Source of the DNA: an uncultured bacterium
Lineage (GTDB): Bacteria > Abyssobacteria > SURF-5
Assembly (NCBI GenBank): GCA_964607485.1
Contig: CAZSKP010000001.1
Location: 1-64,000 of the forward strand
Length of the DNA stretch: 64,000 bases
Reading direction: 5' to 3'
Shown here: piece after piece, positions 8,135 to 30,110 of the stretch
Numbering within the stretch: the stretch's first letter is position 1
How the letters are laid out: each line of letters begins with the position of its first letter
Notes under the pieces: model-generated
Databases searched by the model: none
What the model saw: only the letters and a program-made list of their open reading frames with translations
Told to the model about the DNA's origin: nothing
Translations under genes and position numbers: made by a program

Positions 8135-9310
8135 TCACAGAATTCGCATGAGGGCGCACTTCAGGTAGGCGGTTTCCGGCATGGCGAGGAGCGTCGGATG
8201 GTCGCAGGCCTGTCCCCTCCATTCGACGACGACCGCACTCCGGCGAGCCTTGCGCGCCGCGCTGGAGAGAATCTGCCAGAACCTCTCGCGCGAGATGTGG
8301 AACGAACACGAACAGCTTATCAGCAGCCCGTCGGACGAGACAAGCTTCATCGCGAGGCGGTTGAGCCTTTCGTACGCGGCCTCGCCCTGTTTGAGGTGGC
8401 GTTTGCTCTTGACGAGAGCCGGCGGGTCGAGAATGACGCAGTCGAACTTTTCTCCGCTCTGGACGAGCGCGTCGAGCTTGTCGAAGGCGTCGGCCGTCTC
8501 GAATGCGCAGGTGGAGCCGAGCGAGTTCGATTCGGCGTTTCGCCGGGCCGTCTCTATCGCGCGGGATGACGAATCGATTCCCAATACCTGCGCCGCCCCC
8601 GCCTTGGCCGCGTACAGCGCCCAGGCGCCCGTGTAGCAGAAGCAGTCGAGCACCCTGAGCCCTCGAAACAGGCCTTGCGCGGCGCGGCGGTTTTCGCGCT
8701 GGTCGAGGTAATACCCCGTCTTCTGGCCTTCCATGACATCGACATCAAAGAGGAGGCCGTCCTGCTCGATTCTGACGGGCGATTGAAGGTCGCCGCTGAG
8801 CACCCTGCTCTCGCCCGAGAAGCCCTCGAGTTCGGCCATGGGCGTGTCGGTTCGCAGAACCAGCGCTCTCGGGTCGAGCCCGACCGTCGGCAGAGCGCCC
8901 AACACTTCGCCCAGCCGCGTCTGCATCCCCAGCGTCGAAACCTGGATGACGCTCACGTCCGCATATTTGTCGATGACGAGGCCGGGGAGCCCGTCGGCCT
9001 CTCCGAAGACGGCGCGATAGCTCCCTTCGTCGGGAAACAGCCTCCGGCGGAGCGACAACGCGCGTGCGATCCTCTCGGCAAAAAAGTCCCGGTCTATCGA
9101 CTTCCTGTCTCTTGTCAGAATGCGAACGCATATGAGGGACTGCGGGTTCACGTATCCGCGACCGAGGAAGCTGCCGCCGTGAGTGAACACATCCACCGTC
9201 TCGCCCGGCTTGAAGTCTTGGTCGAGATTGGCGACCTCGTTGCTGAAAATCCACAGGTGCCCCGCCCTGACACGTCGGTCCTCGTTCTTCTTCAGCTTGA
9301 TCGTGCGCAC
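8135..9310 (-). CDS. RlmI-like class I SAM-dependent rRNA methyltransferase (PUA domain + MTase)
   Basis: GHLWIFSNE, GEADGLPGLVID, GQKTGYYLDQREN, ILDPPA and YLK motifs. Confidence 0.92.
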   Translation of the reverse strand: MRTIKLKKNEDRRVRAGHLWIFSNEVANLDQDFKPGETVDVFTHGGSFLGRGYVNPQSLICVRILTRDRKSIDRDFFAERIARALSLRRRLFPDEGSYRAVFGEADGLPGLVIDKYADVSVIQVSTLGMQTRLGEVLGALPTVGLDPRALVLRTDTPMAELEGFSGESRVLSGDLQSPVRIEQDGLLFDVDVMEGQKTGYYLDQRENRRAAQGLFRGLRVLDCFCYTGAWALYAAKAGAAQVLGIDSSSRAIETARRNAESNSLGSTCAFETADAFDKLDALVQSGEKFDCVILDPPALVKSKRHLKQGEAAYERLNRLAMKLVSSDGLLISCSCSFHISRERFWQILSSAARKARRSAVVVEWRGQACDHPTLLAMPETAYLKCALMRIL

Positions 9311-9332
9311 GTGTCTCCGCGTTCGGTACCCG

Positions 9333-10313
9333 CTATCGGGTCAGTTCTGCGGCCTTCGCGGCCGTTTCCTCCGCCATGGAAATGCATTTCGATATGATGT
9401 TGTCTTCGAAATACCGTCGGGCCTGCTCAGTGTCGCCGAAATCCGTCTGGGTAATCTCGCGGCAAAGGTGGGAGTGAAACTTACTTTCGAACCACTTGTA
9501 AAGCTCGCCGCAGCGCAGCAGGGCGTCGTTCGCGGGCGAAAGGTCGAGCCTGTTAAAAGCCGCGCTTCCCTGGATGAGCGTTAAGAGGAGGCGGCGGAAA
9601 AGCGCGAGTGTTCCCGTTTGGCTGGTGTCGCCGCCTCTCTTGAGACCTATTACGATGCAGCCTCCCAGCAGCGCCGCGCAGGTGGAGCCGGTGTAGCCGA
9701 TGCCGCCGTTGAGCGGAATGAGCGCGTTGGGCGGGAAGACGGGGCTCATATCGAGCTCTTCGGAGGCCAGCATGACAACCGAATAGGCGCAATGAAAGTT
9801 GTTGTCGGAGAACTTGCGGTTGAGGTCGTAGTAGCGGTCGTCCGGCAGCTCGTCCGCTTCGCCGACAATGTCGGCCAACATGTAGGCCGACTTCGAAGCG
9901 ACCTTTACGCAATTGCGCGACCTGCTGAGAATGTACTTACGAAGCTGCCAGCCGTCGTCGAAATCCGTTTGAGCGATGTCTTTGCACAGAGCGCCTCCCG
10001 ACTGTTTCGTGAAACGCCGGACGAATTCAGCCACATAGGCGCAGCCTCTGGCGGTTATCGCCGCCTGATCTTCGTCGGTCCCGGCGCTCGCAAGGGCGAG
10101 AGCCAGGGATCCGCCAACGAGGATGCCGCAGGCAGCGCCTTGATGTCCGACACCTCCGGCCAGTCCGGCGACCGATTTCAGCTTTTTTACATCTCCCAGA
10201 CCTAGGAGATCCTGCATGTTGAGCAGGGTTGCCTGCGCTCAATGGCCCATCTGCAACATGCGCGAGGCCGCCTTCTTTGCGGCGGCCTTCTTGTCAATGT
10301 ATTGCTTTGCCAT
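9333..10313 (-). CDS. Tandem two-domain C-GCAxxG-C-C family putative redox protein; predicted selenoprotein (Sec25, UGA at 10241-10239)
   Basis: AGGAGA RBS then ATG at 10313 reads MAKQYIDKKAAAKKAASRMLQMGH-TGA-AQATLLN in frame into ORF 9333..10217; H-U-A-Q matches H-C-A-Y of the second domain. Confidence 0.85.
10191..10210 (-). promoter_or_regulatory. Putative bacterial SECIS hairpin
   Basis: mRNA AUCUCCUA-GGUC-UGGGAGAU, 8-bp stem; loop begins 37 nt after the UGA. Confidence 0.6.
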
Positions 10314-10626
10314 TTCTCCTCCCGACGGTCAAAGTGCCTTTTTATCAATCGCCTGGACAGCCAAATACGCGCCGACCGTTCTCTACTATTGTAGGCTTGT
10401 GCGGTCAAATGTCAAGCAAAGGCGCGGAAAACGGGAGCGAACCGAATCTGTCTGATGATTACTCGGCGATGAGGACTGTCCCCACCGCGCCGGTTGACTT
10501 TGTTCGAGTGGTACACTAGAATTGTTGTGTCCGCAGGAATTCACCCCCTTTTCGAGGCGGATAAAGGCATCGATTCGTTCAACATCTTCGTGTATCCATA
10601 GATATGCTCATAGCGAGGGAGGCGAC

Positions 10627-11664: not shown

Positions 11665-11692
11665 ATTATTATGATGCTGTGAGACAGTGTGT

Positions 11693-12256
11693 ATGGTAAA
11701 TCTTTCAAGATATCACCGACGCTCCATTCGGCTGAAGGAGTTCGATTATTCCCGGGCGGGTATGTATTTCATAACGATTTGCACGCGCAAGGGGAAGTTA
11801 TTATTTGGAAATATTGTGGACGGCGAGATGAGGCCGAATCGAATCGGTATGCTTGTTCAGGAAGAATGGCTGCGATCATCGGCAATTCGACGGGAGATTG
11901 AGTTGGACGCGTTCGTGGTAATGCCCAATCACATTCACGCGATAGTCGATATTCGCGAGGAAGATGTGTCCAGTGCTGTAGGGGCGCACGGCCGTGCGCC
12001 CCTACAACGGAAACCGAGGTCATTAAGCTCGCTCGTTGCCGGTTTTAAATCCGCCGTCACCAAACGCGTTAATGAAATACGAAAGATGCCCGGCATTTCA
12101 GTCTGGCAACGTAACTACTACGAGCATGTCGTGCGCAGTAACGCGGAGTTGGACAGAATTAGGGAGTACGTTCTGGCCAACCCGCTGCGGTGGGAGTTGG
12201 ACAGAGAGAATCCCGCGGCCCCACTTGTCAAGAGCGAGGAGCCGTGGCAGATATGA
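11693..12256 (+). mobile_element. REP-associated tyrosine (HUH/Y1) transposase, RAYT/TnpA-REP (IS200/IS605 superfamily)
   Basis: RRSIRL..FDY, YFITICT, HUH motif MPNHIH, WQRNYYEH, catalytic Tyr in REYVLANP; associated REPs. Confidence 0.92.
11978..12005 (+). repeat. REP copy embedded in frame within the RAYT gene
   Basis: Perfect 28-bp palindrome GTAGGGGCGCACGGCCGTGCGCCCCTAC, encoding VGAHGRAPL. Confidence 0.85.
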
Positions 12257-29411: not shown

Positions 29412-30110
29412 TCACGGCACCCAGAAGGGACCGCTTTTCCCGATTCCCTTAAGAGTGGCAAAGAACTCTCCCATATACTCCGGTATTCGGGAAACGTAGT
29501 CGGCGTCCAGACGCCTGCGGAAAAATTCGATGGAGAACAGTTTCACAAGGTCGGGCAGCGGCACTATCCCATCCTTCTTCTCTTCGGTATAATCGGCCCA
29601 GTTCTTCAGGTGTTCTTCCGACCGGAAGAAAACCATCGTGCTTCAGGCAAAGCCCGGGTCTTGCATCCACTGCAAGAACGGAACCGACACATGCCCGATT
29701 ATCCCGTCCGGGCTCGTGTTAAGGATTTCGCCGTCCTTGATCTCGACCCGTATGGGCTCACCGCAGTCCAGACACGGGGAATCGATTCGAACAGTTTTTC
29801 CAGGAAAGAGCCAGCAGACCGCCAGCGATTCGAATGCTCACTGGCCGAACCATTTCTGCTGACCGTCAATCGTGATGCGGAACTGATTCATGAGGCTGTT
29901 GAACGGCGCCATCGACACGATGATATCCGTCTTCGGATACAGCCATCCGGGCACTCCGGCATTGACCAAGTCGTGGAGCGCCTTCCTGCCTTCCTCCACG
30001 GAAACACCCAATTTCTTGGCTATCTCCGTGTAGTGAGGCGCCTGCCCTGTTTCCACGAAGCGCTTCAGGATTACGTTGTGGGTCCTGTCCAGCAGGCTCG
30101 GCTCACTCAT
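29412..30110 (-). CDS. MerB-like (organomercurial lyase fold) protein with two predicted selenocysteines (U91, U156), 232 aa
   Basis: One frame with TGA at 29840-29838 and 29645-29643: ...WFGQ-U-AFE...SPCLDCGEPIRV...GFA-U-STMVFFRSEEH; matches MerB C96-A-L-D99 and C159..FF.S; SECIS-like hairpins follow both. Confidence 0.88.
29613..29630 (-). promoter_or_regulatory. SECIS-like hairpin after the second UGA
   Basis: UUCUUCC-GGUC-GGAAGAA, perfect 7-bp stem, 12-nt spacer after the UGA. Confidence 0.75.
29810..29826 (-). promoter_or_regulatory. SECIS-like hairpin after the first UGA
   Basis: GCUGGC-GGUCU-GCUGGC (6 bp, two G:U), 11-nt spacer after the UGA, resembling the fdhF-type SECIS. Confidence 0.7.

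Follow-up and report, generated by a model that had tools for sequence, protein, structure and literature searches.

The locus studied here lies on the minus strand of the window, i.e., the whole stretch of 64,000 nucleotides that was analysed. Reading of the sequence revealed a 326-codon frame that opens with a Shine-Dalgarno site and an ATG at position 10313, and comparison with the consensus placed a sigma-70-like site about 75 nt upstream of this ATG. The first-pass annotation had described a ribosome binding site, an ATG at 10313, 24 sense codons, a TGA and a 294-aa ORF, all of which are present at these positions. ORF calling with translation table 11 returned only the 294-aa part starting from Met33, and the product would have 326 residues when the TGA is read as selenocysteine (Sec). 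No Shine-Dalgarno sequence was found in the bases ahead of Met33, CCCTGCTCAAC, by direct reading. Because codon 25 is a UGA that would be read as selenocysteine, the first 32 codons are missed by standard gene callers. The features of the locus are as follows:

10388 to 10415, minus strand: sigma-70-like promoter site (TTGACA, 16 nt, TACAAT), agreeing at 11 of 12 positions, as a consensus match only
10316 to 10323, minus strand: Shine-Dalgarno sequence GGGAGGAG, read directly from the sequence
10311 to 10313, minus strand: ATG, the probable true start codon, exactly 24 codons ahead of the TGA in all 10 Sec-form genes
10242 to 10313, minus strand: codons 1-24, encoding an N-terminal helix missed by gene callers, conserved in orthologues and Cys forms (helix 8-22 in the model)
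10239 to 10241, minus strand: UGA, the probable selenocysteine codon 25, inside the first Pfam match, with TGC or Cys in homologues and TGA in 10 of 10 genomes
10223 to 10236, minus strand: alternative hairpin GCAGG-CAAC-CCUGC, 2 nt past the UGA, which can form and competes with the helper helix
10215 to 10217, minus strand: Met33, the probable false start taken by gene callers and the first residue of the table-11 ORF and of 37 out of 51 database relatives
10211 to 10227, minus strand: helper helix (CCUGC, 7 nt, GCAGG) immediately ahead of the SECIS-type hairpin, predicted in the minimum-energy and consensus folds
10191 to 10210, minus strand: SECIS-type hairpin with an 8-bp stem and the loop GGUC at 10202-10199, assigned from folds, conservation and published constraints
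9849 to 10313, minus strand: domain 1, residues 1-155, with U25, C62, C110 and C135 (PF09719 match at residues 24-149; no variation at the four positions across 12 sequences)
9336 to 9848, minus strand: domain 2, residues 156-326, with C175, C212, C284 and C310 (second PF09719 match; the Cys are invariant in 30 sequences)
9333 to 9335, minus strand: stop codon TAG, at 9335-9333 in the frame of ATG 10313

Alignment of the two halves of the protein with each other (BLASTP E 2e-12, 26% identity) placed H24-U25 opposite H174-C175, which bears out the earlier proposal of an internal duplication with the Cys partner of the UGA in the same gene. Translated with Sec, domain 1 carries the motifs H-U-AQA, GGVG, ACG, LCKDI and NCV, and domain 2 carries H-C-AYS, GGIG, TCA, LCREI and KCI. 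As had been suggested, both domains could be aligned to the Pfam family C_GCAxxG_C_C (PF09719), with two matches at 1.5e-32 and 112.6 bits against a cut-off of 27; the domains scored 57.6 and 56.1 bits when submitted singly. The first match maps residues 24-149 onto profile positions 2-118, and since it begins at residue 24, the UGA takes the family's first conserved Cys position. NCBIfam model TIGR01909, "C-GCAxxG-C-C family (seleno)protein", was matched at 64 bits (cut-off 47.4). Both domains contain the four conserved Cys positions, with U25 replacing the first Cys of domain 1, and both contain the Gly-rich motif (GAACGILVGG in domain 1 and GSTCAALLGG in domain 2), the spacing of which is a variant of the name-giving GCAxxG motif. 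Within this motif, G59, A60, C62, G63 and G68 of domain 1 and C212, A214, L215 and G218 of domain 2 are invariant or nearly so.

An exhaustive HMMER search retrieved 657 relatives at E 0.001 or better, and the 150 matches listed of these included 75 long relatives with 250 residues or more. All eight Cys are present in 58 of these 75 listed long relatives, and therefore the two-domain architecture is common. Another 12 of the 75 listed long relatives are without their N-terminal part as far as about residue 27-39, which is the truncation signature also seen at the locus. Judged from these sequences, about one sixth of the distant two-domain relatives would be cut at the UGA spot, and the arrangement may thus be widespread but hidden. 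Two further family members were observed in the same genome. A single-domain C_GCAxxG_C_C paralogue (L035, C56:15396-15776, plus strand) has one TGA at its first-Cys position (GFN-U-AQSVL), followed about 21 nt past the UGA by a 7-bp hairpin, and its neighbours encode an acyl-CoA dehydrogenase and an MscS-like channel. The third member of the family (L036, C55:6469-6837, minus strand) has a first-position Cys (YDSCTQSIL) and no in-frame stop.

Closer relatives were collected by a word-indexed search, and the resulting 51 sequences were sorted by N-terminus. As many as 37 have as their first residue the Met that corresponds to Met33 (MQDLLG...), in line with the earlier expectation that standard pipelines would truncate the protein, and 294-aa NCBI entries named "C_GCAxxG_C_C family protein" are among these truncated relatives. 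Five extend further and have GHC[A/G]QA where the gene has its UGA, and the remaining nine are fragments. These five full-length homologues are the Cys orthologues at residue 25 that the first-pass annotation had advised looking for, and three of the Cys forms (P0028, P0044 and P0046) reach a full N-terminus that can be aligned to codons 1-24. A lack of conservation upstream of the TGA, named beforehand as an observation that would speak against recoding, was not what we found: the stretch is conserved, and in the five full-length homologues it is continuous with the Cys. In total, TGC or Cys occupies the UGA column in five Cys-form proteins and two Cys-form genes.

Conservation of the TGA within the lineage was then analysed in the 11 genomes examined of the GTDB phylum of the window. 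The gene was found in 10 of these genomes with exactly one TGA in each, and the genome without a match is a member of another family. The TGA lies at the identical codon in all 10 Sec-form genes, and a purine-rich or G-rich Shine-Dalgarno-like run occupies the corresponding place in each of nine orthologous loci inspected. The ten Sec-form genomes are not independent samples, because all of them belong to one GTDB family. Synonymous codon identity among them was 0.752 in codons 26-43, compared with 0.447 in codons 44-326 and 0.466 in codons 1-24; among 18 bins, that of codons 19-36 was the highest at 0.779, the next reaching 0.535. A scan of genome contigs recovered the lineage genomes again together with one Cys-form gene (L018), labelled Thermodesulfobacteriota. 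A metagenome scan added only four loci, L021-L024, of which L021 is partial and without the UGA region, and L022 is a Cys form; L023 and L024 (distant or partial) as well as L020 (27% identity) were left out of the analysis. Metagenome contigs from runs of two other studies span the TGA with no listed difference, and two of these contigs resemble the window at 10191-10264 only; no RNA data set was listed as containing the stretch.

A complete set of genes for Sec incorporation was identified in the genome, so that the absence of a Sec system, the other observation named beforehand as speaking against recoding, does not apply. Genes selA and selB are adjacent on C71 (SelA 479.9 bits, SelB 386.2 bits), SelD is encoded on C18 (391.6 bits) by a gene with one TGA of its own, and a tRNA-SeC with anticodon tca is located on C19. 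In the selD gene (L007, C18:62527-63453, plus strand), the in-frame TGA is found in the context GG-U-ACKAG, and GGUC lies across the apex of a hairpin that starts 27 nt past the UGA, which puts it in one spacing class with the gene studied here. TGA terminates 8 of 11 neighbouring ORFs, and therefore this codon is not generally recoded in the genome.

The region downstream of the UGA was analysed for a SECIS-type RNA element. The GGUC-loop hairpin reported at 10191-10210 is present with 8 bp and is kept in all 10 lineage genomes; folded alone it reached −10.0 kcal/mol (z −2.2), and 8 of 200 shuffles folded as well. The part of a 2026 review that deals with the bacterial SECIS model (PMC13188914) gives a loop of 3-9 nt, a stem of 4-16 bp, G at the first two loop positions, a UGA-to-loop distance of 16-37 nt, and an MFE of −7.5 kcal/mol or lower. 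The hairpin falls within all of these limits, with a 4-nt loop that has G at its first positions, an 8-bp stem, −10 kcal/mol, and a spacing of 36 nt, the latter at the upper edge of the range. It likewise agrees with the bSECISearch consensus for bacterial SECIS elements in being a stem-loop inside the CDS, past the UGA, that obeys all constraints, and it differs from this consensus in the extra 5-bp helix between the UGA and the hairpin. This helper helix pairs in 96% of cells across the 10 genes and is absent from the predicted folds of the two Cys-form genes. The second hairpin of the first-pass annotation, GCAGG-CAAC-CCUGC abutting the UGA, can indeed form at 10236-10223, but it is outcompeted in the minimum-energy fold, where its CCUGC arm pairs instead with GCAGG at 10215-10211, and it is not specific to Sec forms. 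The two Cys-form genes, too, are predicted to form a CAGG/CCUG stem at this place, the flanking residues AQA[T/S]L being conserved in them, and the hairpin was left out of the proposed signal.

In the 66 nt that follow the UGA, per-column identity among the ten genes is 89%. Paired cells amounted to 92.5% in the hairpin and 93.8% in the whole structure, compared with 33-50% when the pairing partners were slid. The hairpin is absent from the two Cys-form genes, in which no more than 4 and 5 of its 8 positions pair; the Sec forms keep the peptide MQDLLGLGD in the hairpin stretch, which varies in the Cys forms. Across the ten genes, none of the 13 pairs showed a change on both sides, and the changes seen were one-sided and compatible with wobble pairing; in the covariation tests, two alternative structures were equally free of any two-sided pair change. 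In the shuffle control, 283 of 500 shuffles reached the observed percentage paired, so the structure is not separated from chance by this measure. With no compensatory changes and an uninformative shuffle control, the RNA element is supported by conservation and not by covariation. The fold of the 63-nt region gave z −1.5 (17 of 200 shuffles were as good), and an Rfam scan of positions 9000-10600 at E up to 10 returned a single sub-threshold sRNA match, on the other strand.

Taken as a whole, these data are in our view very probably best explained by a genuine 326-codon selenoprotein gene, and the decoding of the UGA as Sec, as judged from sequence comparison, can be held with still greater confidence. 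The Cys homologues, the conserved TGA and the Sec system all agree with the earlier assignment of Sec to domain 1 and Cys to domain 2. If the TGA were a true stop, the locus would encode two products, an upstream peptide of 24 residues and, separately, a 294-residue protein from the Met at 10217, as table-11 ORF calling has it and as 37 of the 51 database entries are annotated. We consider this very unlikely, since a protein starting at Met33 would be devoid of the first invariant residue present in the Pfam profile and in the Cys homologues, the Shine-Dalgarno sequence stands ahead of 10313 and none stands ahead of 10217, the ATG, the 24 upstream codons and the TGA are kept in 10 of 10 genomes, and synonymous sites are constrained directly past the TGA. 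A sequencing or assembly error, a recent nonsense mutation giving a pseudogene, or a genome-wide code with TGA as an amino acid is conceivable in a generic sense for any metagenome-assembled genome (here in 93 contigs), and the chance of any of them is negligible given that this TGA recurs in 10 genomes as well as in contigs from other runs, that 8 of 11 neighbouring ORFs end in TGA, and that three orthologues themselves end in TGA.

We propose that ribosomes start at ATG 10313 and that the GGUC-loop hairpin, which starts 28 nt past UGA-25, would recruit SelB with Sec-tRNA(Sec), so that selenocysteine would be put in at UGA-25 in place of termination. The product would be a cytoplasmic, all-helical protein of two fused C-GCAxxG-C-C domains, in which the family's first Cys position would be Sec in domain 1, with the Cys retained in domain 2.

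The full-length protein was modelled with high scores (pLDDT 92.3, pTM 0.92) as an all-helical structure. Its best structural match in an exhaustive aligner was 1h21_A, split-Soret cytochrome c, with Z 9.8 and rmsd 4.4 Å over 169 residues and the next chain at 4.7, a score to be read with the caveat that helical models can reach Z of about 13 in this tool from arrangement alone. The alignment covers both domains, its 169 residues being spread across model residues 1-310, and the title of the PDB entry 1h21 begins "A novel iron centre...". A Foldseek search against the PDB gave nothing at E 0.001 or better, and prenyl synthases and transporters headed its list at a TM of about 0.15. When the family profile was searched against PDB sequences, 1h21 was the sole match at a non-significant E of 0.73; in that alignment, Cys residues of the chain stand opposite three of the four Cys motifs, namely the Gly-rich one and the two later ones. 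Single-domain phmmer searches against PDB sequences yielded chance-level rows only, and 1h21 was not among them. A model of domain 1 by itself, built on an alignment of 12 rows, was poor (pLDDT 65.3), and no fold search was based on it. The non-haem centre of split-Soret cytochrome c in 1h21 is, as we take it, a Cys-ligated iron-sulfur cluster. Only this non-haem part resembles the protein studied here, which, in contrast to split-Soret cytochrome c of Desulfovibrio desulfuricans (1H21), has neither CxxCH haem motifs nor a cytochrome part, and has two such domains where 1h21 apparently has one. Because of the missing CxxCH motif, the protein does not belong to the split-Soret cytochromes, and the likeness in fold serves as a functional lead only.

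Leader sequences of the relatives were also inspected. Twin-arginine leaders are typically found on proteins that are exported with their cofactor already bound. By a crude pattern, a twin-arginine-like leader was detected in 8 of the 58 all-Cys two-domain relatives among the 150 listed of 657, and inspection of the translation revealed no such leader in the window protein. The eight relatives (P0068, P0077, P0079, P0081, P0088, P0100, P0101 and P0142) combine the leader with a conserved MGHCAP motif; P0122 came up as a ninth match that looked spurious and was discarded. The sequences suggest that the leader-bearing all-Cys relatives could form a periplasmic, cofactor-bearing branch of the family.

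The redox or metal-binding role put forward at first reading is one that we, too, can only infer. The structural match to 1h21, the three aligned Cys motifs and the twin-arginine-like leaders of relatives led us to favour a metal centre. That each four-residue site houses a metal or iron-sulfur type centre, to which Sec would contribute one ligand in domain 1, seems to us evenly balanced; a Sec-liganded iron-sulfur or other metal centre in domain 1, accompanied by an all-Cys copy of the site in domain 2, is proposed quite tentatively and may well be incorrect. The main rival is a couple without metal, in which U25 would form a reversible selenenylsulfide with C62, C110 or C135 and the protein would act as a Sec-decoded oxidoreductase of the thiol type. 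We regard this as possible, at somewhat less than an even chance. It is in keeping with the family name "putative redox-active protein", with the inconclusive structural link to the iron-centre protein, and with the statements in the parts consulted of two reviews that most prokaryotic selenoproteins are thought to be redox proteins with Sec in the active site (PMC9312934, PMC13188914). It fits less well with four invariant, far-apart Cys positions per domain, which exceed the need of a two-residue couple, and with a translated protein in which no CxxC- or UxxC-type motif was found; the leaders in 8 of the 58 listed relatives and the 1h21 match also point to a cofactor. On the metal-centre reading, the protein would serve as a small module for electron transfer or redox sensing, and the Sec ligand would alter the redox behaviour of the domain 1 centre. 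If true, this would be a natural selenium-ligated centre with a built-in comparison of Sec and Cys in one cofactor site.

In relation to known systems, C-GCAxxG-C-C is given as a selenoprotein family in a table of the 2022 review (PMC9312934), and C-GCAxxG-C-C "form 1" and "form 2" are selenoprotein entries in the table rows of the 2026 review (PMC13188914). Since selenoproteins are already on record for this family, the gene is less novel than first thought: the recoding is real and the public database annotation is wrong, and the principle is already known. Both domains resemble TIGR01909/PF09719 members in scoring above the cut-offs and in having all four conserved Cys positions each, but here two domains are fused and Sec is in the first only. 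The HUGP/GUXX-star fusion selenoprotein (NF045501) is similar in that its N-terminal part matches residues 9-129 and, as far as its name indicates, in a His-Sec at the start of the domain like H24-U25. The protein is nevertheless not a member, with 60.1 bits against a cut-off of 325, and it differs by having one TGA and no C-terminal GUXX-stop module, the C-terminus reading ...AAELTR followed by TAG. The best NCBIfam score, 69.8 bits over residues 24-149, was obtained with the DVU_1555 family C-GCAxxG-C-C protein (NF045669), but this is below its cut-off of 103 bits, and that model describes a single domain of 140 positions. Compared with the review passages and table rows above, the gene adds a two-domain form with Sec in one domain to the family. 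Because the site occurs in one protein both with Sec and with Cys, the gene is a convenient test case. For annotation, at least 37 entries of the subfamily and 12 of the 75 listed distant two-domain representatives are without the residue that is the likeliest to carry the chemistry; the database entries do not include residue 25 because gene callers stop at the UGA.

The neighbours of the gene are rRNA-methyltransferase-like, LptF/G, nitronate monooxygenase-like and IS200-like. The synteny of the first three is conserved within the family and is of a housekeeping kind, and no redox or metal context was found among the gene neighbours, which offer no hint of function; nor do the neighbours at the Cys-form locus L018 or around the C56 paralogue. 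The IS200-like ORF (Y1 transposase; window 11687-12256, plus strand) lies between the nitronate-monooxygenase-like and M19 dipeptidase genes, and it was not found at the orthologous loci L013 and L019, where the two flanking genes are adjacent. Elsewhere in the window, a MerB-like (alkylmercury lyase) ORF at 29412-30110 on the minus strand (PF03243, 3.9e-22) has two TGA codons in frame, at residue 94 (29840-29838) and residue 159 (29645-29643), and past each of them lies a 7-bp hairpin whose loop is GUC or GGUC. The two positions presumably fall near Cys96 and Cys159, the catalytic residues of MerB, and the ORF, likely the first hidden selenoprotein implied by the numbering in the first-pass annotation, probably encodes a double selenoprotein.
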